From: Enterobacteria phage vB_EcoM_IME338
Direction: 5' to 3' (one strand)
Sequence record: MH051914
DNA: 64,000 nt
In this document: positions 2,447-64,000 of the stretch, piece after piece
Position numbering within the stretch: position 1 is the stretch's first letter
How the letters are laid out: the number at the start of each line of letters is the position of its first letter
The notes under the pieces: generated by a model
Told to the model about the DNA's origin: nothing
Database searches by the model: none
The model's input: only the letters and a program-made list of their open reading frames with translations
Made by a program: the position numbers and the translations under genes

Positions 2447-3553
2447 ATGACTACTAAAACTAAATCACAGATTGACGCAGAAATTTACAAACTGGTTAAA
2501 GAGGGCAAGCTGACTAAAACAGCTATTGCACAGAAATTTAATACTTCAACCCGTTCAGTTGGTCGTGCTGTAGAGCGTCATGAAGCAACCTTAAAAGGTA
2601 AGAAGAAGGCAACTTCTACACCAGCTACAAAGACTTTGAAACAAGTTGCTAAGACCTTTAAAAAGAAAGCTGACAAACCAGTTGAAAAGGTTGTTAAAAA
2701 GGCTGTACAGAAAGCTCCGGTAAATAAACTGCATGAAGCTATGCAGAAAGATGACAAGATTGAGTACATGATTACTGGCGACTCTGTAATTATGACTTAC
2801 GGTTCAGAATCTGAAATTGTTGAGTCTACTCATCCGAACTATCAAGAGATTGTAGTCCATGTTGTGAAAGGTGAGTTTAAGAAAGCCTTTGAACTGATGA
2901 ATATTCGTAAGTCTATCGAAAACTTCACTCAGGGTGCTATCACAATCAAAGGTGACAAGTTATTCTACGGTGCTGTTGAGATGCGTTCTACTCTGGTTGA
3001 CCGTATTCTTCACATGATGAAGACTGGAGATAAATGTTTTGAACGCCTTGTAATGTTCTTCGAAAAACTGATGGAAAACCCATCTAAAGGTTCTGTAGAA
3101 CAACTGTGGGGATTCATATCTCACCTTGATGTTGAAATTGATGAAGAAGGCTACATTATCGGTTGGAAAAAGGTACAAAGTAAAGCTGACGGTTCTCTGG
3201 TAGACAGCCACACCCATAAAGTACCTAATGACTTGGGTAACCTAGTTGAGATGCCTCGTTGGATGGTTGATAATGACCCTAACCGCACTTGCTCTCAGGG
3301 TTTACATGTTGGTGCATGGGAATATGTATCATGTTTTGGAGGTGATACCATCCTGAAAGTTCGTGTCCATCCACGAGATGTTGTATCTGTTCCGACTGAT
3401 TACAACGATATGAAGATGCGTGTATCAGCTTATGAGTCTTTTGCGATTGTTGACAGCAACCGTAAAGTTATCAAGACTCACTCTGGCTCTGGTGGGTATC
3501 GTGTAGTGATTGGTTCTCACGGTGAGTTAATCTCCAAGACAGCACGCGTTTAA
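2447..3553 (+). CDS. rIIB: rIIB-like protein
   Basis: 368-aa ORF directly downstream of rIIA-like gene; N-terminal HTH-like segment; conserved-looking C-terminal block VHPRDVVSVPTDYNDMKMR; assignment by synteny and motif recollection. Confidence 0.5.
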   Translation: MTTKTKSQIDAEIYKLVKEGKLTKTAIAQKFNTSTRSVGRAVERHEATLKGKKKATSTPATKTLKQVAKTFKKKADKPVEKVVKKAVQKAPVNKLHEAMQKDDKIEYMITGDSVIMTYGSESEIVESTHPNYQEIVVHVVKGEFKKAFELMNIRKSIENFTQGAITIKGDKLFYGAVEMRSTLVDRILHMMKTGDKCFERLVMFFEKLMENPSKGSVEQLWGFISHLDVEIDEEGYIIGWKKVQSKADGSLVDSHTHKVPNDLGNLVEMPRWMVDNDPNRTCSQGLHVGAWEYVSCFGGDTILKVRVHPRDVVSVPTDYNDMKMRVSAYESFAIVDSNRKVIKTHSGSGGYRVVIGSHGELISKTARV

Positions 3554-3564
3554 TAGTTTACAAT

Positions 3565-3588
3565 AGGCTACTTCGGTAGCCTTTTTTG
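3565..3588 (+). terminator. rho-independent terminator
   Basis: AGGCTAC-TTCG-GTAGCCT hairpin followed by T6. Confidence 0.65.
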
Positions 3589-3602
3589 ATATGGGAGGAT
3601 GA

Positions 3603-4502
3603 ATGGCTAAAGCAGAACTTGATAAATACTACACACCTGACGAAGTAATAAGGGTGTGTGAAGATAAGCTACAAAAGGTCTTTAAAGGCTCTATTTCGTG
3701 CATTATAGACCCCTGTGCAGGTGACGGAAGATGGAAAGATTCTTTTAAGAGGGTTTGTCAAGATGTTGTGCTATACGACATCGAACCAGACTCTGAAGAT
3801 GTTAGTACAAGAGACTTCCTGAAAGATGACTTAGAGATTCCAGATAAACCTTTTGCGATTGTTACCAACCCTCCATTTGGTAAGGCAAATAGTCTGTCTA
3901 CAAAGTTCTTTAACAAGGCTGCTACAATGAATCCAGACTACATTTGCTTCTTAGTTCCCATTAACTTTGGGAAGAAGAATCTTAGCAGACTTAGCAGAGA
4001 GTACACCTGCATTGATGAAGTAGAACTACCTAACCTTCATTTTGAAAGGATTGATGGAGTTACCTACTCAGCAAAAGAATCATCACTACGCTGTAACTTC
4101 CAAATCTGGAAGAGACAAAAACGGACAGATAAAATTTGTAAGATTGTCCCTGTGATAGTTGATGGCGTAAGAGTTTATAAGCGTGAGAAATTCACACTAT
4201 ACAGGCCACCATGTCACAAGATTGATGGTAAAGAGCAGCCAGTAGGTGTTTTAGGTAAACTGGATGGAAAAGATTTGTTCACGATTATTACACATGGTCG
4301 TAAGGCTGGCACTGTGAAGGTTTTTGAACCAGATAAAGATAAGGTGTCAGTGAAACAGTTTATCGAACCACACGTAGAGGGTCTTTACTCAGCAATCAAA
4401 CAAGAATGGTTTAATGATTTGAGAGATGGTTTTGCACTGAGTCATGCAGGTTCTATCAACTCACAAGAAATTATAAATACTTTAGAAAAACACTTGCATT
4501 AA
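3603..4502 (+). CDS. N6-adenine DNA methyltransferase, gamma-class (TaqI/Eco57I-like), orphan
   Basis: motif X YYTPDEV, motif I DPCAGDG (SAM binding), motif IV TNPPFG in gamma-class order; no adjacent restriction enzyme. Confidence 0.75.
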   Translation: MAKAELDKYYTPDEVIRVCEDKLQKVFKGSISCIIDPCAGDGRWKDSFKRVCQDVVLYDIEPDSEDVSTRDFLKDDLEIPDKPFAIVTNPPFGKANSLSTKFFNKAATMNPDYICFLVPINFGKKNLSRLSREYTCIDEVELPNLHFERIDGVTYSAKESSLRCNFQIWKRQKRTDKICKIVPVIVDGVRVYKREKFTLYRPPCHKIDGKEQPVGVLGKLDGKDLFTIITHGRKAGTVKVFEPDKDKVSVKQFIEPHVEGLYSAIKQEWFNDLRDGFALSHAGSINSQEIINTLEKHLH

Positions 4503-6277: not shown

Positions 6278-6950
6278 TGAAGTACTGTGCCATGCTTATG
6301 ACTTGCATCCTCATGAGTTAGGTCTTGATTCCTGTGTATGGACTCCAGAACAGTGCAGGGATTTTGAAGATACTGCAAGAGAAGTTGTATGTTCACTTGA
6401 AGAGTTCCACACATCAGAACCAATTGTGAACGTTGTGGACAAAGAGACTGGACAATCTATAGGTGTAAGACGTGATAGTTTAGTCATAGTCAATAAAGAC
6501 CTTGTAGAAAAAGGTAACCTCATCTTAGCAGATATTGATGGTGTTCTTACAAATTTTAATCACGAAGATTGCTCAACGGAACTGATTGATGGGTCATTCT
6601 CACAGTACACTAATCTTCTTGACTCTGTAAGAGCAAAACCAACATATGTTTTTAGTATTATTGATGCAATTGCTAATTATGCTGCCATTGGACTCTTGAC
6701 AGCTAGAGGTGAATCTCAGAGAATACCTACTGAGATGTTTTTAAGGCATTACATAGAGCATGATTACATGCTTTTCATGCGTGGTTTTGGAACTAACTCT
6801 ATAAGTGCAGAAAGTTTAAAAGTTAGGATGATTCAGTCTTGCATTCTTCCTTACTTTAATATAGTATGCTTTATAGAAGATACAGAGAAGAATGTTCAGA
6901 AGGTGAACAGGATTCTCCCACACATCAAAACCATGTTAGTTAAACATTGA
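6255..6950 (+). CDS. hypothetical protein
   Basis: 231-aa ORF, AGGT RBS. Confidence 0.5.
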   Translation: MKKLRKSDEVLCHAYDLHPHELGLDSCVWTPEQCRDFEDTAREVVCSLEEFHTSEPIVNVVDKETGQSIGVRRDSLVIVNKDLVEKGNLILADIDGVLTNFNHEDCSTELIDGSFSQYTNLLDSVRAKPTYVFSIIDAIANYAAIGLLTARGESQRIPTEMFLRHYIEHDYMLFMRGFGTNSISAESLKVRMIQSCILPYFNIVCFIEDTEKNVQKVNRILPHIKTMLVKH

Positions 6951-6960
6951 GAGAAAACTT

Positions 6961-7425
6961 ATGAATAATATCATTACGGTAGCACTGGACGTTACGGCAA
7001 ACAAATCTGAAGTAGTTCGTAACATTATCAAAAGCAACTTTGAGGGTAAAATCTTCCGTGCTGTCAATGTAAAAGCAGATGGTAACATCCGAGAATACCG
7101 TGCTCTTCTGAATGTTAAGAAACACGTCAAAGGTGCTGGTTCAACGACTGCACACAAAGAAAACCTGATGACTATCTATGATATGGGTATGGCTTCAGAG
7201 TTAGGTGCTGAAGGTATCGTTAAAGAAGGTGCTCCGTATCGCTCTTTCAATCTGGAAACTGCTCTTATGCTTTCCTTTACAAGTGGTTCTAAAACAACTA
7301 CTTATCTCTTTACTGATGCTGCAACGGTATCTGCTATCAAGGATGGCACTGTCAAAGCTGGCGTAGTTGCTGCTGCAAAAGCTTCTTCGATGGCTGCAAA
7401 TGTCCTTGCTAAAGTCCTCGGTTAA
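6961..7425 (+). CDS. hypothetical protein
   Basis: 154-aa ORF followed by strong terminator. Confidence 0.55.
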   Translation: MNNIITVALDVTANKSEVVRNIIKSNFEGKIFRAVNVKADGNIREYRALLNVKKHVKGAGSTTAHKENLMTIYDMGMASELGAEGIVKEGAPYRSFNLETALMLSFTSGSKTTTYLFTDAATVSAIKDGTVKAGVVAAAKASSMAANVLAKVLG

Positions 7426-7435
7426 GGTTAAGATA

Positions 7436-7459
7436 CAGGCTCCTTCGGGAGCCTTTTTC
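7436..7459 (+). terminator. rho-independent terminator
   Basis: GGCTCC-TTCG-GGAGCC hairpin followed by T5. Confidence 0.65.
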
Positions 7460-7476
7460 ATTTCAGGAGATTGTAT

Positions 7477-7635
7477 ATGTACAAAACATATTTGATAACA
7501 GTCGTCATAAAGGGTGTTGAAATTACCCTCCCAATGGCATCTAAAACTACTTGTGAGGTAGAGGCTTTGCAAGAGTTAGTTGAGCAAGCTGAATTACTTT
7601 ATCCACAAGCTGAATTTGTTTATCCAGCAGTGTAG
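7477..7635 (+). CDS. small hypothetical protein (52 aa)
   Basis: ATG preceded by GGAG RBS just after terminator; below ORF-track length cutoff. Confidence 0.35.
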   Translation: MYKTYLITVVIKGVEITLPMASKTTCEVEALQELVEQAELLYPQAEFVYPAV

Positions 7636-7647
7636 AGGATACTAAAA

Positions 7648-7995
7648 ATGACATTTAAAGAGTTCTGTCAAGCCACTTTCATAATTGTTTTCTTAGTTGG
7701 AGCAGGTGTCTGGGGAGGATACTCTTACAGAGACTACCAAGTTGCTGAAGCTGAGCTAAATAATGAGAAACTAATAAGTGTTGCCAAAGATGCTTATCAG
7801 GAAGGTTTAGCCACACTCAGCACCAATTACAAAAATGATTTGAAAGACGTGCTTGCTAAGAATAAGCATACAAAAGAGGTACTAACGTATGAAAAGACTA
7901 AGCCAGAGTTTTATAACATTTGTGCTACTGATACTTATGTCAGGGTGTTCAACGAACAAAGCGAACTTTACGTTCAAAAACTCCCAAGTAAGTGA
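7648..7995 (+). CDS. i-spanin-like (Rz-like) inner-membrane protein
   Basis: N-terminal TM helix then charged periplasmic region; overlaps a lipoprotein ORF in another frame. Confidence 0.5.
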   Translation: MTFKEFCQATFIIVFLVGAGVWGGYSYRDYQVAEAELNNEKLISVAKDAYQEGLATLSTNYKNDLKDVLAKNKHTKEVLTYEKTKPEFYNICATDTYVRVFNEQSELYVQKLPSK

Positions 7996-8158
7996 GAGTG
8001 ATAAGTACACTCAAGAAGAATCACGGTATATCATCAAAGGCAACACAGGCAGTGATGTAGCAGCAGCACTTGAGTTCTACCGTGATGGCTTTTACCAGTG
8101 TACAATTAAAGCTAATAACCTTATTGACATGATTTTATTAGGAAATAAGCAGCAATGA
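7889..8158 (+). CDS. o-spanin-like (Rz1-like) lipoprotein, overlapping the i-spanin gene
   Basis: lipobox LLILMSGCS; start embedded in 7648-7995 in a different frame. Confidence 0.5.
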   Translation: MKRLSQSFITFVLLILMSGCSTNKANFTFKNSQVSESDKYTQEESRYIIKGNTGSDVAAALEFYRDGFYQCTIKANNLIDMILLGNKQQ

Positions 8159-8424
8159 CAGAGAATCAAGATACTTTCTATGTAGAAGGTTACTTACTGT
8201 TACCACGACCAAAAGAAACTTATATGCGAATCGACTTCTTACCAACCATTATGGATAATGTGATGTGCCATATCTTTATGCAAGGTGTCACAGCACAGCT
8301 TAAGCATGTTGGTAAAGAGTGCAAAATAAAGGTTGACACTCATCCAGAAATCAAAGAGAATCACTACACATGGTTCTTACCAGACTCTAAAGAAATCTTA
8401 GCAGTTCTTAAAACGAGGAAGTAA
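8155..8424 (+). CDS. hypothetical protein
   Basis: 89-aa ORF, start overlaps upstream stop. Confidence 0.45.
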   Translation: MTENQDTFYVEGYLLLPRPKETYMRIDFLPTIMDNVMCHIFMQGVTAQLKHVGKECKIKVDTHPEIKENHYTWFLPDSKEILAVLKTRK

Positions 8425-25085: not shown

Positions 25086-26501
25086 ATGAGCGAGTTATTT
25101 AAACATGCGCACCTTCATGCAGGTCGAACTGAAAATGGTGCTGTAAACCATACTTCATCAATGTCTGCTCTGGTAGACTTCTACAAAGCCGCTGGCTCAA
25201 GCCGTAGCAATGTAGAAATCTTACCAGACCTGTTCTACAAAGCTTTGCGTGAGGATGTTGATGTTGCAGTTCGTATTTTACTGCATATGCGAGATGTAAG
25301 AGAAGGTATGGGTGAGCGTAAAGCTTTCCGAACTGTTTTACTTCAAGCGATTGAAGATAAGGTTTTAGAGCCTACACAGGTTCTTCGCATTATGGATAAG
25401 ATTGCAGAACTTGGTCGTTTTGATGACTTCAAAATCTTCGTAGGTACTCGTTTTGAGACAGATGCCTTCAAACATTTAGAATCAGCATTACTAGACCCTG
25501 CAACAGCAGGTTTAGCAGCTAAGTGGTTGCCACGAGTAAAACCACGCCACAAACAGTTTGTAAAACGTTTCTGCAAGTTTGCAAACTTAAGTGAGAAGGA
25601 GTATCGCACACTGTTGTCTGCACTATCTGATACGGTTGAGCAAAAAATCTCTGCTAATAAGTTTGGTAAGATTGACTACAGCAAGATTCCTTCACTCGCT
25701 GCTGCACGTTACCAAAAGCTCTTTAACCGTAAAGATGGGGAACGTTACAAAGCTTACATCGAGTCCCTCTCAAAAGGTGAGGCTAAGATTAACGCTGGTG
25801 CTGTTTACCCATACGATGTGATTAAATCTATCAAGTATGGTAATGCAGATGTTGCTAATGAGCAGTGGAAAGCACTACCAAACTGGATGGCAGAGGGTGA
25901 AAACATCTTGTGTATGACTGATGTTTCAAGCTCAATGTCTTGGGTGAATCTTGGTTCAATCACTGCCCTTGATATTGGTGTATCACTTGCCTTGTATGTA
26001 GCAGAACGCAATACAGGTTGCTTTAAAGATGAGTTAATGGTCTATTCAACAAACCCTCATTTCATTGAACTGAGTGGTGATTTACGAAACCGTCATCGTC
26101 AGGTAATGCGTCATGTTGAATATGGTTCAACTAACTTACAAGCAGCTTTTGACCGTATTCTTGAGGTAGGTAAGAGAAACAACTTGACTCAGAAAGATAT
26201 GCCAAGTAAGCTTATCATCTTCTCCGATATGGAGTTCAATCAGGTTGATGGAGCAAATGGTCGTACAAACTTTGAAGCAATTCAGAGTAAGTACAAAAAA
26301 GCTGGATACGAAATGCCACAACTAGTATTCTGGTACTTAGCAAACCGTAATGGGACTTGCGAAGTATCTGTTAAGGATAATGGTGTAGCAATGGTATCAG
26401 GGTTCTCTCCAGCCACTTTAAAAGCTCTGCTTGGTGGTGAGAAGTTTGACCCAATCAGCGTAATGCTCAAAGCAGTAATGATTGACCGTTACATCTGGTA
26501 A
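25086..26501 (+). CDS. rsr: Ro60/Rsr-like protein (C-terminal vWA with MIDAS; TROVE-like N-terminus)
   Basis: MIDAS DVSSSMS...T...D; C-terminal blocks IIFSDMEF and NRNGTCEVSVKDNGVAMVSGFSPATLKAL align with recalled human Ro60 vWA region; helical N-terminal region. Confidence 0.65.
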   Translation: MSELFKHAHLHAGRTENGAVNHTSSMSALVDFYKAAGSSRSNVEILPDLFYKALREDVDVAVRILLHMRDVREGMGERKAFRTVLLQAIEDKVLEPTQVLRIMDKIAELGRFDDFKIFVGTRFETDAFKHLESALLDPATAGLAAKWLPRVKPRHKQFVKRFCKFANLSEKEYRTLLSALSDTVEQKISANKFGKIDYSKIPSLAAARYQKLFNRKDGERYKAYIESLSKGEAKINAGAVYPYDVIKSIKYGNADVANEQWKALPNWMAEGENILCMTDVSSSMSWVNLGSITALDIGVSLALYVAERNTGCFKDELMVYSTNPHFIELSGDLRNRHRQVMRHVEYGSTNLQAAFDRILEVGKRNNLTQKDMPSKLIIFSDMEFNQVDGANGRTNFEAIQSKYKKAGYEMPQLVFWYLANRNGTCEVSVKDNGVAMVSGFSPATLKALLGGEKFDPISVMLKAVMIDRYIW

Positions 26502-26519
26502 AAAGTTTTAAAAAGGGTA

Positions 26520-26548
26520 TTGACAACGTGTTTGATACCCTTTAATAT
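26520..26548 (+). promoter_or_regulatory. sigma70-like promoter (tRNA/ncRNA array), overlapped by palindrome GGGTAT...ATACCC
   Basis: TTGACA-N17-TAATAT. Confidence 0.6.
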
Positions 26549-26610
26549 GTTCTACATAGAAACGAAATGAGAACTTTTCTAAGATACTGAAAAATATTTT
26601 AAAAAAGTTC

Positions 26611-26640
26611 TTGACAACCACTAAAAAATAATGTTAAAGT
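26611..26640 (+). promoter_or_regulatory. second sigma70-like promoter for tRNA array
   Basis: TTGACA-N17/18-TAAAGT. Confidence 0.55.
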
Positions 26641-26666
26641 GGTTACATAGAGTTTGAAAAGTTTAT

Positions 26667-26743
26667 CTCTGTTTAGCTCAGCTTGGTAGAGCGTTCCGTT
26701 TGGGGCGGTAAGGCCGGAGGTTCAAGTCCTCCAACAGAGACCA
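26667..26743 (+). tRNA. tRNA-Pro (anticodon TGG)
   Basis: manual cloverleaf: acceptor CTCTGTT/AACAGAG, anticodon loop TTTGGGG, T-arm GGAGG-TTCAAGT-CCTCC, CCA encoded. Confidence 0.75.
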
Positions 26744-26750
26744 AATTAAT

Positions 26751-26828
26751 GTTCCAGTAGACAAAATGGTATAGTCACCACTCTTTCAAAGTGGATATTT
26801 GAGGGTTCAAATCCCTTCTGGAACGCCA
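26751..26828 (+). tRNA. tRNA-Glu (anticodon TTC)
   Basis: acceptor GTTCCAG/CTGGAAC, anticodon arm CCACT-CTTTCAA-AGTGG, CCA encoded. Confidence 0.75.
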
Positions 26829-26835
26829 GTTTTGA

Positions 26836-26908
26836 CAGAAGACCAATTACAGCAAACTTAATCTTATTCATCTGACACGAAATCGGACAAAGAAGAGATT
26901 TGGTCTGG
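26836..26908 (+). ncRNA. Y-RNA-like structured element E1
   Basis: 5' CAGAAGACCAATTACAGCAA ... 3' TTGGTCTGG; terminal helix AGACCAA/TTGGTCT. Confidence 0.4.
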
Positions 26909-26919
26909 TCATTAAGAAT

Positions 26920-26996
26920 TGCGGGTATAGAGAAAGGGCGTCTCACATGTCTCATTAGCATGGTATCGGCAGGTTCGACTCCTGCACCCGCCTCCA
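26920..26996 (+). tRNA. tRNA-Met-like (anticodon CAT), atypical acceptor/D junction
   Basis: D-arm GAGA/TCTC, anticodon arm CATGT-CTCATTA-GCATG, T-arm GCAGG-TTCGACT-CCTGC; acceptor pairs only with a 3-nt connector or 1-72 mismatch. Confidence 0.5.
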
Positions 26997-27002
26997 ATTT
27001 TG

Positions 27003-27062
27003 CAGAAGACCGTATGCAGCAATAAACTACTTTTTGCGGATAAAAGAAAAAACACGGTCTGG
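27003..27062 (+). ncRNA. Y-RNA-like structured element E2
   Basis: 5' CAGAAGACCGTATGCAGCAA ... 3' ACGGTCTGG; helix AGACCGT/ACGGTCT (compensatory vs E1). Confidence 0.4.
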
Positions 27063-27073
27063 CAACCTATTAA

Positions 27074-27147
27074 GGTTAGGAAGCACATGAGGTATGTGCG
27101 GTCGCCTGTTAAGCGAATGGCACAGGGTTCGAATCCCTGACTAACCG
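27074..27147 (+). tRNA. tRNA-Asn (anticodon GTT)
   Basis: D-arm GCAC/GTGC, anticodon loop CTGTTAA, T-arm CAGGG-TTCGAAT-CCCTG. Confidence 0.75.
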
Positions 27148-27159
27148 CAAAATTTAAAT

Positions 27160-27247
27160 GTGTCGTTATCCCGTAGATGGTAGCGGTGGGGACTGTAAAT
27201 CCCTTGTCATTGAGACTCGGTAGGTTCGACTCCTACACGGCACACCA
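27160..27247 (+). tRNA. tRNA-Tyr (anticodon GTA), class II
   Basis: acceptor GTGTCGT/ACGGCAC, anticodon arm GGGGA-CTGTAAA-TCCCT, long variable arm, T-arm GTAGG-TTCGACT-CCTAC, CCA. Confidence 0.75.
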
Positions 27248-27308
27248 ATTTTGAGAGGGCTATTTAGCCCCTCCCTTAAAGGGTTCTTACGAGTATTCTT
27301 TAAAGGAG

Positions 27309-27382
27309 CAGAAGACCAAATACAGCAAGTTATTTAAAATTTCAAGCCAATTTAATTTTGAAAAATTTAAAACTTGGTCTGG
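27309..27382 (+). ncRNA. Y-RNA-like structured element E3
   Basis: 5' CAGAAGACCAAATACAGCAA ... 3' TTGGTCTGG. Confidence 0.4.
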
Positions 27383-27395
27383 CTCAACAAATTTA

Positions 27396-27526
27396 CAGAA
27401 AACCGTTTACAGCAAAACTTAAACAATCTATTTCTCGGTAAAGAAAAGGCGAAGGTTCGATTCCTTCACTCGGCAGATGTCGAGTTGGTGTAATGGTAGC
27501 ACTTAAGATGATAAACAACGGTCTGG
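27396..27526 (+). ncRNA. YrlA-like RNA candidate: terminal helix enclosing a permuted tRNA-like module
   Basis: ends CAGAAAACCGTTTACAGCAA / AACGGTCTGG; internal T-arm GAAGG-TTCGATT-CCTTC, closed acceptor-like hairpin ACTCGGC-AGAT-GTCGAGT, D-arm GTGT-AATGGTA-GCAC. Confidence 0.5.
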
Positions 27527-27529
27527 TAA

Positions 27530-27669
27530 TTATCTTTGTAGATAAGTTATTAAGCTTACCTGTGAGTATGCGACCACAAAGGGTGAAAGGGTAAATTCTA
27601 GATTTAAACCCAACAAGGCACATCGCTACAGACCTTAAGCAAGTCTGGGTAGCTTATCTACAAAGATAA
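27530..27669 (+). ncRNA. structured RNA candidate with perfect 17-bp terminal stem
   Basis: TTATCTTTGTAGATAAG pairs with CTTATCTACAAAGATAA about 105 nt away; inner bulged hairpin CTACAGAC/GTCTGGGTAG. Confidence 0.4.
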
Positions 27670-27675
27670 TTTAAT

Positions 27676-27751
27676 GGAAGTGTAGCAGAATGGTGATGCG
27701 GCAGACTTTTAATCTGACAGGCGATGGGTTCGAATCCCTCCACTTCTACCA
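27676..27751 (+). tRNA. tRNA-Lys (anticodon TTT)
   Basis: acceptor GGAAGTG/CACTTCT, anticodon loop CTTTTAA, T-loop TTCGAAT; T-stem only 3 G-C pairs. Confidence 0.6.
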
Positions 27752-27755
27752 ATAT

Positions 27756-27832
27756 GGTTCAGTCGCAGATAAGGTAATGCAGGGGTCTCATAAGCCCTAT
27801 GAATGTGGGTTCGATTCCCATCTGAACCTCCA
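27756..27832 (+). tRNA. tRNA-Met (anticodon CAT; initiator/elongator/Ile2 not resolved)
   Basis: acceptor GGTTCAG/CTGAACC, anticodon arm GGGGT-CTCATAA-GCCCT, T-arm GTGGG-TTCGATT-CCCAT. Confidence 0.7.
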
Positions 27833-27834
27833 AT

Positions 27835-27910
27835 GCTGTGAAAGCACATATGGATGTGCATTCGGCTGATAACCGAAAGGCAGAAGGTTCGAATCCTTCT
27901 CACAGTACCA
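27835..27910 (+). tRNA. tRNA-Ile (anticodon GAT)
   Basis: canonical: D GCAC/GTGC, anticodon arm TTCGG-CTGATAA-CCGAA, T-arm GAAGG-TTCGAAT-CCTTC, CCA. Confidence 0.85.
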
Positions 27911-27925
27911 ATTTCAATAAAGTTG

Positions 27926-27954
27926 TTGACATTGATGTGTGACTACTTTATAGT
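27926..27954 (+). promoter_or_regulatory. internal sigma70-like promoter within tRNA region
   Basis: TTGACA-N17-TATAGT. Confidence 0.55.
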
Positions 27955-28157
27955 AACCTTAGTTTTCGTTGCGTAGCGTCTATTTTGCAAATCTAAAATA
28001 AATGCAAACGACAATGTTTTTCTGGCAGTAGCTTGATAGGCTAAACACCAGTGAGGTCTTCCAATCCCTCATCAAAGAATTTGGCGTACTCGCCCACGGT
28101 ATGATTAATAAGGTGGGCATCTTTAAGGGCTTTCTAAGAGAGTCTTTAAAGATTAAT

Positions 28158-28234
28158 GCACCCTTAGTTCAACTGGACAGAACAAATGACTTCTAATCAT
28201 TAGGTTACAGGTTCGAATCCTGTAGGGTGTGCCA
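28158..28234 (+). tRNA. tRNA-Arg (anticodon TCT)
   Basis: D GTTC/GAAC, anticodon arm AATGA-CTTCTAA-TCATT, T-arm ACAGG-TTCGAAT-CCTGT, CCA. Confidence 0.8.
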
Positions 28235-28376
28235 AATAGTTAGCAGATTGCTTAGACGACCTTATCGGGTCTCCGTGTAAGGAGGTGGTCTGTATCTCAT
28301 GTTTTCCAGAACATGTAAATAATCTGAGAAGGGGCTTTACAGTGTTGTGAAAATACGGTAAGCTTCGAATTATAGT

Positions 28377-28459
28377 GTGGGACGATGTTAAGACTCTAAG
28401 GCATGAGCAACGGCTTCCAACACCGTTTCAAAGGGGTTCAACTCCTCCGTCCCATGCCA
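28377..28459 (+). tRNA. tRNA-Trp-like (anticodon CCA) with 7-nt insertion between acceptor stem and D-arm
   Basis: acceptor GTGGGAC/GTCCCAT + CCA; D ACTC-TAAGGCAT-GAGC; anticodon arm AACGG(C)-TTCCAAC-(A)CCGTT with 31-39 mismatch; T-loop TTCAACT; 9-nt connector instead of 2. Confidence 0.45.
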
Positions 28460-28472
28460 AAGTCTTATTAGG

Positions 28473-28560
28473 GGTAGGTAGCGGCTAATGGTAGCCAAAC
28501 TGTCTTGAAAACAGTTGCCACTGTAGAGATACGGTGAGGGTTCGACTCCTTTACTTACCG
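28473..28560 (+). tRNA. tRNA-Ser (anticodon TGA), class II
   Basis: acceptor GGTAGGT/ACTTACC, anticodon arm ACTGT-CTTGAAA-ACAGT, variable arm stem CTGTA/TACGG, T-loop TTCGACT. Confidence 0.7.
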
Positions 28561-28817
28561 CCTAATAAGATTTAAAGCCAAGCTTCATTCGGATGTTGCT
28601 TTGGTATCCCTCGTGTATTGTCGTACACCCTGATAAAGCACCTAGTAGGTGTCACGGAGAAGAGATAATATCAAGCTCTCCAAAGGTTCTAGTCACCGGA
28701 TTGAACAAGACTATGCAAAGACCAATTTAGGTCTTTTTAGAGGGCTTCTAAGGTTATTACAGCTTGTTGTGGAACCTTGTTGCTTAGGTTCTTAGAAGTT
28801 CTCTAAAAAGATTTAAT

Positions 28818-28894
28818 GCACCTATAGCCCAACTGGTAGAGGCAGCAGACTTAGAATCTGCTCAGTGTGAGTTCGAATCTCTCTAGGTGTACCA
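28818..28894 (+). tRNA. tRNA with anticodon TAG (Leu by anticodon) but short variable arm
   Basis: acceptor GCACCTA/TAGGTGT, anticodon arm GCAGA-CTTAGAA-TCTGC, T-loop TTCGAAT, A73, CCA. Confidence 0.6.
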
Positions 28895-28901
28895 AATTAA
28901 T

Positions 28902-28977
28902 GCAGGTGTAGCAAAATGGTTATGCGGCTGACTCTTAATCAGTAAGACGATGGGTTCAATTCCCTCCACCTGTACCA
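28902..28977 (+). tRNA. tRNA-Lys (anticodon CTT)
   Basis: paralog of Lys-TTT gene; anticodon loop CTCTTAA; CCA. Confidence 0.6.
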
Positions 28978-28983
28978 AACATT

Positions 28984-29059
28984 GGGGTCATAGTTTATAT
29001 GGTTAAAATTCGAGTTTTGCAAACTTGGGAACTGAGTTCAATTCTCAGTGACTCCACCA
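28984..29059 (+). tRNA. tRNA-Ala (anticodon TGC)
   Basis: acceptor GGGGTCA/TGACTCC with G3-U70 identity pair, anticodon loop TTTGCAA, T-arm CTGAG-TTCAATT-CTCAG, CCA. Confidence 0.8.
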
Positions 29060-29065
29060 ATTAGT

Positions 29066-29140
29066 GCATCCATAGTTTAAACGGGAAAATTACAGTCTTC
29101 CAAACTGAGGTTGAGGGTTCGATTCCCTCTGGATGCTCCA
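29066..29140 (+). tRNA. tRNA-Gly (anticodon TCC)
   Basis: acceptor GCATCCA/TGGATGC, anticodon loop CTTCCAA, T-arm GAGGG-TTCGATT-CCCTC, CCA. Confidence 0.75.
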
Positions 29141-29147
29141 AATTAAT

Positions 29148-29224
29148 GCTGCTTTCGTATAATTGGCTATTACACATCCCTTGTAAGGATGGAAATGCAG
29201 GTTCGAGTCCTGTGAGCAGCACCA
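29148..29224 (+). tRNA. tRNA-Thr (anticodon TGT)
   Basis: anticodon arm CATCC-CTTGTAA-GGATG, T-arm GCAGG-TTCGAGT-CCTGT, CCA. Confidence 0.75.
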
Positions 29225-29227
29225 ATT

Positions 29228-29319
29228 CAGAGGTCAAGTGAAAGACCGCTGGTGTCAACTGAAGACCGTAACAAATTCCACGGAGTTGAGTTAGCGGCAC
29301 AACTTCAGACCTCTTTCAT
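29228..29319 (+). ncRNA. structured element E6 with two GAAGACC-type motifs
   Basis: CAGAGGTC...GACCTCTTTCAT terminal pairing; internal GTGAAAGACCGC and CTGAAGACCGTAACAAA. Confidence 0.3.
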
Positions 29320-29394
29320 ACTCGCTTAGTTTATATGGTAAAACACCACCCTTACAAGATGAAGAAAAAGGTTCAAGTCCTTTAGTGAGTACCA
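29320..29394 (+). tRNA. tRNA-Val-like (anticodon TAC) with weak anticodon stem; possible pseudo-tRNA
   Basis: good acceptor, D-arm GTTT/AAAC, T-arm AAAGG-TTCAAGT-CCTTT; anticodon loop CTTACAA but stem CCACC/GATGA has 3 of 5 pairs. Confidence 0.45.
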
Positions 29395-29395
29395 T

Positions 29396-29474
29396 GTTCC
29401 AGTATCCCAATTGGCAGAGAGGCCAGACTTAAAATCTGTGTTATGTATCGGTTCGAATCCGATATGGAGTACCA
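29396..29474 (+). tRNA. tRNA-Leu-like (anticodon TAA), atypical 5' half
   Basis: T-arm ATCGG-TTCGAAT-CCGAT, anticodon loop CTTAAAA, acceptor GTTCCAG/ATGGAGT with two G-U pairs; D-arm pairing ambiguous. Confidence 0.45.
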
Positions 29475-29479
29475 AATTT

Positions 29480-29555
29480 AGCGGTATAGCATAACTGGCA
29501 ATGCAACAGTCTCTGAAGCTGTCTTATTAAGGTTCAAATCCTTATGCCGCTGCCA
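29480..29555 (+). tRNA. tRNA-Gln (anticodon CTG)
   Basis: D GCAT/ATGC, anticodon arm ACAGT-CTCTGAA-GCTGT, T-arm TAAGG-TTCAAAT-CCTTA, CCA. Confidence 0.75.
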
Positions 29556-29586
29556 CTTCTAAGGATTCTTACGAGAGTCCTTAAAT

Positions 29587-29662
29587 GTGGCCTTATCATA
29601 AATGGTAATAACCCATGCTGTGAACATGGTCTATACGGGTTCAAATCCCGTAGGTCACCCCA
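29587..29662 (+). tRNA. tRNA-His (anticodon GTG)
   Basis: anticodon arm CCATG-CTGTGAA-CATGG, T-arm ACGGG-TTCAAAT-CCCGT, C73, CCA; no encoded G-1. Confidence 0.7.
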
Positions 29663-29667
29663 ATTTA

Positions 29668-29744
29668 TAGTCCAAGTAGCTTATATGGTTAAAGCGCGTG
29701 TCTGAAAAACATGAGAAGAGGGTTCAAATCCCACTGGACTACCA
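29668..29744 (+). tRNA. tRNA-Phe-like (anticodon GAA), 4-nt acceptor/D connector
   Basis: perfect acceptor TAGTCCA/TGGACTA, D GCTT/AAGC, anticodon arm CGTGT-CTGAAAA-ACATG, T-loop TTCAAAT. Confidence 0.55.
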
Positions 29745-29760
29745 ATTTCAAAGGTGCTTA

Positions 29761-30495
29761 ATGAAAGAGATGACAGAACAAGGTAAGGAGATTTTTAATC
29801 TCTTAAAAACCGGTAGAGGGTTTTCTAATCCCCTTATTACTGGTGCAGCAGTTCTCGGTGGAACCGTAGCTGCCTCTACATCACTTATAAGCTCTATTAG
29901 CTCTGTAACAGACCCTACAATAAAGGATAAACTTGTTGCTGCTGGACTGACAACAGTTCTGCTTAACAGCTTTACAACGAGCCTGACAAGCACTACATCA
30001 ACCACTAAGACATTGACAGACTACGGTCAAAAGTCTATTGATGAGTTTTCATCACGTATGCAGGTAGCAAAAGGCTATTCTAATGTTATGGGTGCAGCAG
30101 GAGAGCAAGTTGGTTGTACACCATTTAGTGGTATTATGGGTGTTGCTACAGAGTATGGTCAAAAAGCTATTGACACAATTAACAGTGCACTAGATGGTGT
30201 TAATGATGTATTAAGCGACTTACAAGATGCTATTGATAAAGGTCTTGATACTATTTCTGATTTAGCTAACCAAGCTGTTAGCAAGATTAATGAAGGTATC
30301 TCAAAGATTACAGCTTATGCAGATGAAGTTGTGCAGATGATTGAAGAAGAAGCTGCCCTTATTGCAGAGTACCTTAAAACGAATATCAATGGGTTCTTAG
30401 CAGGTATCTTACCAGACTGGTTTGACGATGCTTGTAAAACTGGTGTAATTGATACTATTGCAACACCAGAAATGAAGAACGCATTACAGAAATAA
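29761..30495 (+). CDS. hypothetical Ser/Thr/Ala-rich protein embedded in tRNA array
   Basis: start reset to ATG 29761 with AAAGGTG RBS; track start 29698 would overlap tRNA-Phe-like gene. Confidence 0.5.
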   Translation: MKEMTEQGKEIFNLLKTGRGFSNPLITGAAVLGGTVAASTSLISSISSVTDPTIKDKLVAAGLTTVLLNSFTTSLTSTTSTTKTLTDYGQKSIDEFSSRMQVAKGYSNVMGAAGEQVGCTPFSGIMGVATEYGQKAIDTINSALDGVNDVLSDLQDAIDKGLDTISDLANQAVSKINEGISKITAYADEVVQMIEEEAALIAEYLKTNINGFLAGILPDWFDDACKTGVIDTIATPEMKNALQK

Positions 30496-30496
30496 T

Positions 30497-30589
30497 GGAA
30501 GATTAACCCTAAAAGGTAAGGGAGCAGTTTGCTAAACTGCCAGTAGCTGAGAAATCGGTGTACCAGTTCAAGTCTGGTATCTTCCTCCA
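30497..30589 (+). tRNA. tRNA-Ser (anticodon GCT), class II
   Basis: acceptor GGAAGAT/ATCTTCC, anticodon arm GCAGT-TTGCTAA-ACTGC, long variable arm, T-arm ACCAG-TTCAAGT-CTGGT, CCA. Confidence 0.75.
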
Positions 30590-30593
30590 ATTT

Positions 30594-30669
30594 GAATCCG
30601 TGACAGAAATGGATATGTGCCTGTCTGCAAAACAGGTTTATAAGGGTTCGAGTCCCTTCGGATTCTCCA
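30594..30669 (+). tRNA. tRNA-Cys (anticodon GCA)
   Basis: acceptor GAATCCG/CGGATTC, anticodon arm CCTGT-CTGCAAA-ACAGG, T-arm AAGGG-TTCGAGT-CCCTT, CCA. Confidence 0.8.
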
Positions 30670-30706
30670 AGTTATTTTACTCTCTCTCAATTAAAATAAT
30701 AATAAT

Positions 30707-30766
30707 GCCCTGCTATAAGTATTCTTCCTTTCGCTACCGAAGAGTATTTTTAGACAGGGCTTTTTT
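30707..30766 (+). terminator. compound terminator hairpin
   Basis: GCCCTG ... CAGGGC followed by T6, inner hairpin. Confidence 0.5.
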
Positions 30767-30831
30767 ACAGAGTTATACTTTATAAGAAGACTTATACAGT
30801 ATGTCTCTGACGTACATTGTGGTTTCTCCTT

Positions 30832-30855
30832 GACGGTCTCTGTACCGTCTTTTTT
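30832..30855 (+). terminator. rho-independent terminator
   Basis: GACGGT-CTCTGT-ACCGTC followed by T6. Confidence 0.6.
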
Positions 30856-30891
30856 AAGGAGAAACATGGTTAATTATTTGGAGAAAACATA

Positions 30892-31092
30892 ATGAGCGAG
30901 ACCGTTTATAAAGAACTTTATGAAGCTAATAAGAAGCTAGAATTTATGCAGAACACTATCATGGCAATTGCAGACAGATTGTCTGTAGCAACAGGTATTG
31001 ATATTAAAGAGGCATCTATGGATGCACTTCTTGATGCTGTTGATGCAAAGTTCGAAGTTAAGAAAGAAGAGACTGCTACAGACTCTGAATAA
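30892..31092 (+). CDS. small hypothetical protein upstream of terminase
   Basis: 66 aa, GGAG RBS; too short to call small terminase with confidence. Confidence 0.45.
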   Translation: MSETVYKELYEANKKLEFMQNTIMAIADRLSVATGIDIKEASMDALLDAVDAKFEVKKEETATDSE

Positions 31093-61615: not shown

Positions 61616-61886
61616 ATCTGGTCAATACACTCGCAAGGTGTACCAGTTCTCTTATGAACTTCTCCGCATTTCTACGGAGTGTCGGACTATATCACGTAGC
61701 AGTGATGCTACCGTTGCACTTGGGGATGGTCATTAGCTTACCACCCTACTCTACTCAGTTCATACGTTAAGTATGCTTTTCGATAGTCTCTGAACGTTCC
61801 TCTTAAGAGGCTTCGCTGCTGATTACCATATCTTTCCAGACTTAGGCTTCCAGCAATTCACAACGTTTTACATGCGCCACTGACGC
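61616..61886 (-). other. group I intron interrupting the DNA polymerase gene (boundaries within a few nt)
   Basis: minus-strand RNA carries group I core: P4-like GAAUUGCUGGAAGCC, UAUGGUAAUCAGCAG, P7 strands GUUCAGAGACUA and GAUAUAGUCCGAC; exon 1 frame hits a stop inside. Confidence 0.75.
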
Positions 61887-64000
61887 ATAAATGCCATTTT
61901 TGGCTTTCTTACGACCTTTTGTAATCTCGTGAAGAAGCTCCTCATCCTGCGTCTCCCTACAACGAACAATATCATCTTCCTTGTTTAGACCGAAGTAAAT
62001 ACTATTCAGTGTATGTGCATCAGTACCTGTGTAGACTTCGTAGAGGTCATTCTCAGCATCATAACGAAGATACTTATCAGTTTCTGGATTGAGGTACTTA
62101 TCGAGATGCTTGCAATAGTATCTTCCATCCTCTTGCTTGGTAAATTCTACTGACTCTTTACCTTCAGTTACCGCTTTGGTGAAGTCTTTATCACCCATAA
62201 AGTTACACAGTAAAACAAGCTGTGCAGAGTTCTGGTCAACTGAAACGATATTAGTCCCTTCCTCGCAAATCCACACCTCCCTCATAGGTGCTCCATAGAC
62301 AGCAGCACCAGACGGTACGTTTACAATACCATATTGTGTCATACGTCCAGTTGAAGTACCAAACACCATTGCACCAGCACTAAGGCGACCATCAGGACGA
62401 ATCTGGTTCAACCAACCTTTTTCATCATCCTTTGAGTTCTCAATAGTTCTGCGTCGGTGCATCAAGGTATAGTATTTCGCAATCTTCTGTCCAAGCTCAC
62501 CTTCAATCGTATCATAAGATGATTCAGTAAGTTTTGGTGAAGTACGGATTAAGCAAGGCTCAAGCAAATCTGTGTACTTCTTCACAGACCAGTTATGCTC
62601 AATGTACTGGACACCTTCGTGTTCAACATAACTCAAACCACACCGTTCCACCATCTCATCCCATTTAGGATGCTTTGTAATCATCTTTTTGTTGTCTTTG
62701 AAGCGACAAACCTTAACAGGACGACCATCAGAGTCTTTCTTATAGTTCCAGTCATCTGGAATCCAACCAACTGATTTCAAGTAGTCTTTAACAACTGCTA
62801 CCTGAGTCATACGAGAAACTTCGAACTCAATTGGTGTATATGGTGCATCAATCAAACCTGTGTAGCGACTTGACTCAAGTTCAAAGTGGTTAACAACATG
62901 ACTGTTATAGTACTTCACAGTCTTAACTGTTTTTACTGGCTTCCAGTCTTTGCATTTCTTACCAATCTTTGCATTCAACTCATTGCAAATTGCACGAGCA
63001 TCCTTCATTGCTACAAAGCCTTCCTTGTACTCTTCACCAGTTACCGAGTTGGTTGGTGTATAGCAATTCCGCTTTTCAATGTTAAAAATCTTTGTAGTTG
63101 GCTTACCAAATGGCTTGATTTCATATGTCTGCATCTCACCGTTACGTACCTGTTGACGATACTTTGTCTTAGGGTACTTGGTAATTCTCTTCAGTCCATC
63201 TGCATGACCAAATGCTTCAACATACTCATTCCAAGCTTTTGCAAATTCTTCTCCAGTGACTTTACCTTTGGTCTTAATAGTTGGAGGAAGATGTGGTTCA
63301 ACTTCTGAAGCAAGCTCGTTAGTCAACTTGTCAAGTTCCTTTACATGGAACTCCATAAGCTCTTTATCAGCTTTCCAACCATTGATAGCCTGTTGACTCA
63401 TCCAGAAAGATGTTTCTTTAGCTCGCATGTAGGTTTCATAGGTGTCTACGCCACACTTCTTTAGCTTCAGATATTCATTATCCAATGCACGTTTAGTTTT
63501 GGCGTTAATACGGATATCTTCCACAACACGAGTGAAGATTTCTGCATTCCACACACCCCAATGTTCAATCTCTGGTTTACGGACACCAACACGAGCACCC
63601 CATGCTGCCAAGCCATGAGCACCTTTATAGCCTTTTGGAGTTGGTCTATCCATCCACTGAACACGAGACTGGATAAGAGAATCCTGAAAGAAATTACTCC
63701 ACGGCTTACACTTTGGATTATCAAAGTTCCACAAATCGGGTGCAATGTGATTGAAAACCCACCAGTCATAACCGAGACCGTTATGGATGCAAAGACGTTT
63801 TGCCTTTAACGCAAATTCAACACCTTCACGTAAACCACCCTTAATGTACTTGGTATACTTGTGACCGAGGATAGGTTCATCTGTAAAGACCCATACAGGT
63901 GGCTCTTCATCGTCAGATTTATAGTCTGCGAAAGCCATTACGTGCACTTTAGTGAACTCAAGGAGTAAACCATCAGTTTCTGTATCACCAACTAAATGTA
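61887..64000 (-). CDS. DNA polymerase family A, exon 1 (N-terminal part, runs off window end)
   Basis: Exo I motif DTETDGL in the frame extending past 63947 to the window edge; motif A VSVDQNSAQL; ends inside motif B RKKAKNGIY. Confidence 0.75.

Follow-up and report, generated by a model that had tools for sequence, protein, structure and literature searches.

Research on Ro60 proteins and their Y RNA partners has centred on animals, in which Ro60 is known as an autoantigen of lupus and Sjögren disease, and on a small number of bacteria. The bacterial Y RNA YrlA is encoded next to rsr, the gene for Ro60, and its tRNA-like domain has its modules in the order variable arm, T arm, acceptor-like stem and D arm (V–T–AS–D; PMC4201824). 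Ro60 proteins with YrlA-like RNAs have also been reported for mycobacteriophages, CcrColossus and Bacillus phage G, and the Ro60 of Thermus phage phiLo binds two adjacent Y-like RNAs (Yrl1 and Yrl2) and the host PNPase (PMC12135203). According to a preprint, the Ro60-like protein gp130 of the Felixounavirus phage Bas63, encoded directly upstream of tRNA genes, counters the Ppl defence: the knockout loses Ppl resistance, and the authors surmised that Y RNAs might be among the annotated 'tRNA genes'. Here we analyze 64,000 nucleotides (nt) of Enterobacteria phage vB_EcoM_IME338 (sequence record MH051914; the entire stretch is called the window below), in which four elements, E1–E4, stand at the start of a tRNA gene cluster, downstream of a gene whose product has a predicted Ro60-like fold. 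E1–E4 are a structured RNA family with a conserved terminal helix. We consider it probable, at roughly 70 per cent, that they are small non-coding RNA (ncRNA) genes whose products are RNA partners of the phage Ro60-like protein, as Y RNAs are of Ro60. Phage Ro60 proteins with Y-like RNAs are already known for the classical TROVE family; what appears to be new, judging from sequence, is an RNA family that is linked to DUF2828 proteins and lacks CGAA.

The source of the window is a FelixO1-type phage (Felixounavirus), and its stretch 26500–28200 matches 269 phage records at 80–99 per cent identity, mostly from phages of Escherichia, Salmonella, and Shigella. The cluster comprises 22 tRNA genes between 26667 and 30669, all on the + strand (ARAGORN, Rfam). 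The four elements share this strand, begin with CAGAAGACC followed at some distance by RCAGCAA, and end with GGTCTGG; none is found elsewhere in the window. Specifically, the 5' motif AGAARACCNNNNRCAGCAA (at most two mismatches) matches only at 26837, 27004, 27310, and 27397, always on the + strand, where 0.61 matches are expected by chance and 0 of 100 shuffles reach four. The GGTCTGG that closes each element lies at 26902, 27056, 27376, and 27520, that is, 46–117 nt past the 5' motif. These counts bear out the initial annotation, which was made from the letters of the window and described four elements with common 5' and 3' ends. No tRNA is called at E1–E4 by ARAGORN or Rfam, E1–E3 have no tRNA resemblance, and the public genome records that we inspected do not annotate any of the four.

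For comparison, we used a close set of 27 Felixounavirus loci, in which the DUF2828 protein is 84–99 per cent identical to that of the window, and a distant set of 65 loci at 39–46 per cent protein identity plus five at 29–40 per cent, counted as 64 distinct loci. Each fetched locus (cited as L with a number) extends ~5 kb to each side of the gene. All four elements are present in unchanged order in 27/27 Felixounavirus loci; from locus L003, where the exact 3' motif of E4 is absent, only E1–E3 were extracted. Among these orthologs the termini are almost invariant and the interiors diverge, with insertions and deletions. The interior of E1, for example, has a 5-base-pair (bp) hairpin with a hypervariable loop, and only 4 to 8 nt separate E1 from the adjoining tRNAs. 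The interiors had initially been described as AT-rich and different. They are indeed different, but that of E4 is more than AT-rich sequence, as it holds a permuted tRNA-like domain.

The ends of each element close into a bipartite helix with a 4-bp outer stem, an internal loop (AGA on the 5' side, G on the 3' side), and a 7-bp inner stem. The covariation first noticed in the window is seen in AGACCAA/TTGGTCT (E1 and E3), AGACCGT/ACGGTCT (E2), and AAACCGTT/AACGGTCT (E4). The helix itself was recognized correctly, but the ends of the elements had been set too short: pairing runs 3 bp further and covaries there as well. When each element is folded, its outer stem reads TGAC/GTCA, TTGC/GCAA, GAGC/GCTC, and TTAC/GTAA in turn, including a conserved C–G pair. 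We aligned 45 distinct Felixounavirus termini, picked by the fixed motifs alone (alignment A4). The variable outer pairs, in columns (4,46), (5,45), and (6,44), are canonical in 45, 45, and 45 of the 45 termini, and the variable inner pairs, in columns (16,36) and (17,35), in 44 and 45; each of these five pairs occurs as two to four pair types. Over the same termini, 86.0 per cent of cells pair, compared to 23.8–48.7 per cent with the partners slid. With RNAalifold, the orthologs of each of E1, E2, E3, and E4 fold into an identical two-stem closure, and in E2 orthologs the outer stem changes from UGC/GCA to UAC/GUA, a compensatory replacement. Since the five variable pairs occupy positions that were not used in picking the elements and are canonical in at least 44/45 termini, they confirm a conserved RNA helix, as opposed to a protein motif. 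Additionally, the 45 termini contain eight G·U cells versus two A·C cells, which favours an RNA read from the + strand. In E4 of the window, position 27401 is A, whereas 26/26 related loci with E4 extracted have G (AGAAAACC vs AGAAGACC); the resulting A·C mismatch breaks the second inner-stem pair.

In every copy, (U)UNCAGCAA directly follows the 5' strand of the inner stem, and the strand opposite is A-rich. We define a stem-CAGCAA RNA family by ends that pair in a helix of at least 6–7 bp, (U)UNCAGCA(A/C) located 1–3 nt past the 5' strand, G after the 3' strand, and a DUF2828 gene nearby on the same strand; E1–E4 have all of these features. The outer stem was rejected as a general trait of distant members, in which just 64 per cent of its cells pair, and is claimed for Felixounavirus only (100 per cent). 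A kink-turn was also considered for the AGA/G loop and ruled out by inspection, because the unbulged strand reads U-G-G and tandem sheared pairs require G-A.

The domain within E4 corresponds to a tRNA whose open end is at the anticodon and whose acceptor is closed, with its modules in the order V–T–AS–D. All four modules of the YrlA tRNA-like domain (T, D, AS, and V) are found in E4 only; E1–E3 lack the domain. The T and D arms of E4 are invariant among orthologs, and three versions of the acceptor-like stem occur, each fully complementary (ACUCGGC/GUCGAGU, ACACGUU/GGCGUGU, and ACCCUUC/GAAGGGU), with double changes at three pairs and no pair broken. Rfam's tRNA model gives a local T-arm match to E4 (14.9 bits). 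E4 is not a contiguous cloverleaf tRNA (RF00005), as a cloverleaf needs a permutation and a foreign anticodon arm. When the domain is un-permuted and joined to a borrowed anticodon arm, ARAGORN finds a canonical cloverleaf with an acceptor of 7 bp, a D stem of 4 bp and loop of 7 nt, a T stem of 5 bp and loop of 7 nt, and the V hairpin as a long variable arm. An anticodon-stem equivalent predicted within E4 (CUUAA/UUAAG) was discarded, because orthologs such as L017, L018, and L021 do not keep it.

E1–E4 lie, from the start of the first to the end of the last, 330–1030 nt downstream of the Ro60-like gene and on its strand. By Pfam, the protein consists of DUF2828 (1.8e-29) and DUF7788 (1.7e-43); PHROG 850 labels it 'RNA-binding protein', and NCBIfam has no match. 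Its AF2 model, built with 33 homologs (predicted local distance difference test [pLDDT] 88.3, predicted template-modelling score [pTM] 0.88), shows a ring of alpha helices and, after it, a vWA domain. In a Foldseek search of PDB, the best 12 matches are all Ro60/TROVE structures, including those of Xenopus, Deinococcus, and Thermus phage phiLo (best E 2.5e-8, query-normalised TM-scores 0.45–0.67). These alignments span ~505–553 columns, and the matches that follow cover vWA domains only. The gene had initially been called Ro60-like, which holds at the level of fold; by sequence, the protein is not TROVE. The MIDAS (metal ion-dependent adhesion site) motif DxSxS (D279, S281, S283) is invariant in the 33 homologs. 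The candidates scored included 2972 homologs of the protein at E ≤ 1e-5, and this DUF2828-linked family is far more widespread than the classical phage Ro60. From its fold and its position directly upstream of tRNAs, we infer that Bas63 gp130 is an ortholog of the window's open reading frame.

The association between gene and RNA extends to distant phages. In about 40 of the 64 distant loci, one or more strict elements (stem, (U)UNCAGCAA, and 3' YUG) are present on the gene's strand and at most 1 kb away from the gene. In a count over the 64 loci that is blind to structure, instances of CAGCA[AC] that have an exact partner of 7 bp or more number 0.52 per kb on the gene strand within 1 kb, versus 0.03–0.06 per kb elsewhere and on the other strand. 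Given the motif, a partner is found with a probability of 0.447 on the gene's strand close to the gene and of 0.035–0.12 elsewhere. Two traits outside the search criteria recur as well: G follows the 3' strand in 56/64 matches, and the stem begins with [AU]G in 50/64. Most distant copies are short, like E1–E3 (median 62 nt), and 16/57 are long.

Searches with two covariance models agree with these counts. R1 was built from E4 orthologs and R2 from the short form; E4 itself scores 169.5 bits with R1, a value to be read in light of the model coming from E4's own orthologs. R2, run over both strands of 690 kb, yields 72 matches at E ≤ 1; 71 of them are on the gene's strand, and the majority lie within ~2 kb of the gene. 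Its matches in the window are E1–E3 only. R1 finds full-length relatives adjoining the gene on the same strand: L100 has one (62.4 bits), L050 has four (51.1 to 26.0 bits), and L112 and L067 have three each. The stems of these relatives are unrelated in sequence yet complementary (GGCUCA/UGAGCC, GGAAUGU/ACAUUCC, AGAUUGAU/AUCAAUCU, and AGGUUCAC/GUGAACCU), and YCAGCAA and the tRNA-like arms are retained. Two further loci, L116 and L118, came from another database and were excluded from training. L116 has a short form 12 nt past the stop codon (43.5 bits). L118, from a 149-kb phage at 49 per cent protein identity, repeats the arrangement of the window, with the gene, five to six short and long elements (the long ones scoring 65.3 and 55.8 bits with R1), and a run of tRNAs. 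The search of related phages suggested at the outset thus found the RNA motif beside the Ro60-like gene, on the same strand, down to 29–49 per cent protein identity.

Several of these loci have other features of note. In L116, a T4 Rnl1-type RNA ligase and a metallophosphatase (3279–4391 and 6842–7555) flank the DUF2828 gene, with a Band_7 gene further upstream; the ligase and the metallophosphatase make this an RNA-repair-like neighbourhood. Some short forms, such as L051 6785–6855, L057 2079–2146, and L066 4789–4848, have one or two extra AGCAA or AAGCAA in their interior. In L111, a full transfer-messenger RNA (tmRNA) gene (7760–8252; RF00023, 80.1 bits) is located 1.4 kb downstream of a DUF2828 gene that has two Y-like elements.

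The tRNA-like module is also found in other arrangements. Two units of L067 (6895–7015 and 7025–7137) match the Rfam tRNA model from end to end (56.9 and 40.9 bits). They have perfect 7-bp open acceptor stems ending in ACCA or GCCA (NCCA), and an insertion of 55 or 52 nt, consisting of the stem-plus-CAGCA module with a GAYA loop, replaces the anticodon loop. A permuted, E4-like unit follows at 7147–7295, so that one locus contains both topologies. L100 7324–7432 has the terminal helix in the acceptor position and the D, anticodon-like, and T arms in normal order; it matches positions 5–66 of the Rfam tRNA model (55.7 bits). In permuted units, the loop of the acceptor-like stem often begins with NCCA (GCCA, GACCA), as in the E4 orthologs of L019 and L020, L050 4367–4515, L112 4113–4246, and L067 7147–7295. 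Such a loop resembles the 3' end of a tRNA with a spacer behind it; the NCCA may be left over from an ancestral tRNA, or tRNA end-maturation enzymes may process the RNA there. Together, these forms show the stem-CAGCAA family as one design in several circular permutations, which hints at its derivation from tRNA genes.

Table 1. Coordinates of E1–E4, their parts, and the adjoining genes and promoter-like sites in the window. R2 scores refer to the short-form covariance model.
Feature	Position	Strand	Description
Ro60-like protein gene	25086..26501	+	471 amino acids; directly upstream of the tRNA/E1–E4 cluster
Sigma-70-like promoter match	26520–26548	+	TTGACA-17-TAATAT; consensus scan, 10/12
Sigma-70-like promoter match	26611–26640	+	TTGACA-18-TAAAGT; consensus scan, 10/12
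tRNA genes Pro, Glu, Met, Asn, Tyr	26667..27247	+	Interleaved with E1 and E2, precede E3 (ARAGORN, Rfam)
E1, short form	26833–26911	+	79 nt; between tRNA-Glu and tRNA-Met; R2 45.1 bits
E1 outer stem	26833–26836/26908–26911		
E1 internal loop	26837–26839/26907		AGA opposite G
E1 inner stem	26840–26846/26900–26906		
E1 conserved segment	26847–26855		UUACAGCAA
E2, short form	27000–27065	+	66 nt; between tRNA-Met and tRNA-Asn; R2 43.8 bits
E2 outer stem	27000–27003/27062–27065		
E2 inner stem	27007–27013/27054–27060		
E2 conserved segment	27014–27022		AUGCAGCAA
E3, short form	27306–27385	+	80 nt; after the tRNA genes through 27247; R2 47.1 bits
E3 outer stem	27306–27309/27382–27385		
E3 inner stem	27313–27319/27374–27380		
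E3 conserved segment	27320–27328		AUACAGCAA
E4, long form	27393–27529	+	137 nt; encloses the tRNA-like domain
E4 outer stem	27393–27396/27526–27529		
E4 inner stem	27400–27406/27518–27524		
E4 conserved segment	27407–27415		UUACAGCAA
Permuted tRNA-like domain	27431–27502	+	Within E4
V hairpin	27431–27446		UUUCU-CGGUAA-AGAAA
T arm	27451–27467		GAAGGUUCGAUUCCUUC (GAAGG-UUCGAUU-CCUUC)
Acceptor-like stem	27468–27474/27479–27485		7 bp; closed by loop AGAU
U8-G9	27486–27487		
D arm	27488–27502		4 bp (GUGU-AAUGGUA-GCAC); loop AAUGGUA

YrlA and YrlB (RF02553; Chen et al. 2014, PMC4201824) are among the closest known systems. Their genes likewise lie beside a ring-protein gene on the same strand and are often multicopy, and their 5' and 3' ends pair into a presumed protein-binding stem. 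YrlA resembles E4 in its V–T–AS–D order and loop-closed acceptor-like stem, and YrlB resembles E1–E3 in being shorter and without that module. In contrast to YrlA, the present RNAs have no GNCGAAN0-1G, a conserved (U)UNCAGCAA flanks their stem apically, their putative partner is a DUF2828/DUF7788 protein, and their genes are located inside a tRNA cluster. On the distant relative L067 6963–7079, the YrlA model (threshold 69 bits) scores 18.1 bits (E 0.37). The phage systems of phiLo, the mycobacteriophages, CcrColossus, and Bacillus phage G share with the window a phage-borne ring protein with adjacent Y-like RNAs, but those proteins are classical TROVE and their RNAs were found via the CGAA motif, neither of which applies to the present family.

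Metazoan Y RNAs and Yrn1 of D. radiodurans are modular in a similar way, with a variable apical module on a terminal helix whose internal loop or bulge serves the protein, and the tRNA body of L100 7324–7432, with the terminal helix in the acceptor position, recalls the alternative Yrn1 arrangement. There is, however, no sequence or model similarity to either: the metazoan model (RF00019) has no match at E ≤ 10, and the helix has neither GGUCCGA nor the bulged C. The T4 RNAs rnaC and rnaD (species 1 and 2) are similar in being small stable RNAs that are co-located and co-processed with phage tRNAs, and rnaC has a tRNA-like T arm at its end. They were rejected as family members, having no stem + CAGCAA closure and matching R1, with filters off, in T-arm fragments only.

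In the reading that we favour, E1–E4 would be transcribed together with the tRNA cluster from the + strand, either from promoters just past the protein gene or by read-through, and the two sigma-70-like matches in Table 1 are likely the start of this tRNA/Y-like RNA transcript. Cleavage of the adjoining tRNAs by RNase P and the tRNA 3'-end machinery could then release them from the common precursor. Covariation and conservation show the bipartite helix with its invariant, single-stranded (U)UNCAGCAA, apical on the 5' side and facing the A-rich strand. The helix and CAGCAA are the likely docking site for the Ro60-like ring, because this module is common to every family member; the conserved gene linkage and the analogy with Ro60 and Y RNAs point the same way. 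The apical part would be a variable second module, a small hairpin in E1–E3 and a tRNA mimic in E4, and the mimic could recruit tRNA-recognising enzymes or serve as a decoy, as in YrlA. Precedent for such a mechanism comes from phiLo, for which binding of the RNAs and a complex with PNPase have been shown. The resulting particle probably acts in RNA surveillance or repair, or in counter-defence, given the ligase and metallophosphatase neighbours in L116 and the Ppl phenotype of Bas63.

We also entertain a wider hypothesis, although we would give it slightly less than even odds. DUF2828/DUF7788 proteins and stem-CAGCAA RNAs may represent a large, unrecognised, phage-specific branch of Ro60/Y RNA systems, in which a docking helix bears interchangeable heads that include both tRNA permutations, that is, the closed-acceptor form of E4 and the open-acceptor NCCA form with the module in the anticodon loop (L067 6895–7137). 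Such a branch might counter defences that attack RNA or tRNA, or Ppl, possibly by recruiting host nucleases or repair enzymes, in the manner of phiLo Ro60 with PNPase.

Several points weigh against E1–E4 being Y RNA-like partners of the protein. What was observed directly is structure and linkage, and the further steps are drawn from these. On the RNA side, the Infernal check recommended in the initial annotation was negative: at gathering level neither Rfam Y_RNA nor YrlA matches the window, and even at E ≤ 10 neither matches within 26450–31000 or within a 151-nt cut-out around E4 (27385–27535). The known Ro-binding motif (GGUCCGA, GNCGAAN0-1G, CGAA) is absent, and the conserved element differs from it in both sequence and place. 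The window elements read (R)CAGAAGACC, which comes near GNCGAAN0-1G except for an additional A separating C from G; at the equivalent place, AAAGG, UUAGG, or AUUGG is found in distant members, with nothing CGAA-like conserved. The label 'Y-RNA-like' is consequently right, and that of a member of the Y RNA or YrlA families is not. On the protein side, Pfam TROVE does not match the 471-amino-acid sequence, no Ro60 is found among PDB chains by sequence with either phmmer or a 33-sequence profile, and the DUF2828/DUF7788 ring could be used differently from that of Ro60. Furthermore, a strict element at a distance of up to 1 kb from the gene is missing in ~24/64 distant loci, and promoter-like sites in the region are not in excess over shuffles, being pattern matches only. 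Finally, the distant short forms of a further alignment (A3) were chosen by complementarity, which makes its 100 per cent inner-stem pairing circular, and it was left out of the evidence.

The strongest rival, which we regard as unlikely, is that E1–E4 are stable RNAs independent of the Ro60-like protein, for instance decoys for anticodon nucleases or tRNA-modification enzymes, or sponges for an AGCAA-binding protein, with the linkage reflecting shared regulation. E4 mimics tRNA well, as do many of the distant long forms, some short forms have two or three AGCAA repeats, and the protein lacks those sequence features of the RNA-binding surfaces of Ro60 that could be checked. Yet the sole part common to the short, permuted, and un-permuted forms is the stem with CAGCAA and not the tRNA mimic. 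At 29–49 per cent protein identity and in very different genomes, the elements still accompany one gene family, on its strand and as a rule no more than a few hundred nt away, a pattern that is also that of rsr and yrlA. A different and improbable explanation would make the elements spacers or processing signals of the tRNA operon (for RNase E, RNase III, RNase P guides, or precursor protection) without any link to the protein. It would account for their interleaving with same-strand tRNAs, at 4–8 nt from tRNA ends, and for the lack of any visible promoter or terminator belonging to an individual element. However, 27/40 of the element-bearing distant loci have no tRNA within the fetched locus, the element there standing directly after the DUF2828 gene, often ~30 nt past the stop. 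The tRNA-spacer explanation is thereby excluded, and with it the case that the initial annotation had named as its own refutation, a tRNA leader or processing sequence. Nor do the window's other tRNA spacers have the motif, and a processing helix would need neither an invariant CAGCAA nor a tRNA-like module.

That the elements are cis-regulatory parts of an untranslated region (UTR) in the mRNA of the Ro60-like gene, serving autoregulation by the protein or stabilisation of the message, seems slightly less probable still. Many distant loci would fit this idea, as they have a single short form 24–65 nt past the stop or 60–260 nt before the start and no obvious promoter. It fits poorly with the window, where the elements are situated 330–900 nt downstream of the gene, beyond two promoter-like sites and two tRNAs, and arrays of three to seven copies with differing stems (L050, L112, L118, and the window) are hard to explain in this way; tRNA-like modules and release from between flanking tRNAs also suggest free RNAs. 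We find it very improbable that the elements are DNA-level inverted repeats (sites for protein binding, recombination, or homing endonucleases) or decayed tRNA pseudogenes. The termini are inverted repeats, and relatives do have HNH endonuclease insertions in the region, but wobble is tolerated on the + strand only (the G·U and A·C counts above), the asymmetric CAGCAA is on the gene's strand in nearly all R2 matches, and the stem sequence changes freely provided that pairing stays. The invariant T and D arms and covarying acceptor-like stem of E4 are the opposite of decay, and E1–E3 are not tRNA-like to begin with. Weighed together, these observations leave RNA partners of the Ro60-like protein as our preferred reading of E1–E4.

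If this reading is right, the finding points to a second family of ring proteins with partner RNAs of its own, similar to Ro60 in shape, unrelated in sequence, and common in phages. A complete example, with one protein, three short RNAs, and one tRNA-mimic RNA, would be available in manipulable FelixO1-type phages of E. coli and Salmonella. The Y RNA candidates near a Bas63-type gene would then be unannotated spacers between tRNA genes and not the annotated tRNA genes. In the literature that we searched, we found no description of the stem-CAGCAA RNA family, incidental mentions only of DUF2828, and nothing relevant on Felixounavirus transcriptomes. The R1 and R2 models can be used for annotating the family.

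The tRNA cluster of the window contains further structured stretches. Directly after E4, 149 nt on the + strand (27527–27675) fold into a 24-bp terminal stem around four small hairpins, with a minimum free energy of −48.3 kcal/mol (z −5.85; 0/200 shuffles equally stable). This stretch has no CAGCAA and no Rfam match, and possibly represents a further RNA of the cluster that is missing from the annotation. Two spacers between tRNA genes, both on the + strand, are also structured: a 91-nt long hairpin at 28727–28817 (z −3.98) and a 95-nt spacer at 29225–29319 (z −2.86). The latter is closed by AGAGGUC/GACCUCU and has CUGAAGACCGU, a near-copy of the 5' motif of the E elements, without CAGCAA. The region's best sigma-70-like match (TTGACA-17-TATAGT, 11/12) lies within the cluster at 27926–27954 (+). 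It is followed by a leader of ~200 nt ahead of tRNA-Arg (27968–28157, +) with weak tmRNA-type matches (15–20 bits, far below threshold). The 88-nt tRNA-Tyr at 27160–27247 is called by ARAGORN and falls under the Rfam tRNA threshold, and two related records label its counterpart 'putative tRNA pseudogene' or 'tRNA-OTHER'. Elsewhere in the window, a group I intron is found on the − strand at 61662–61945 (RF00028, 62.2 bits, over the gathering score).

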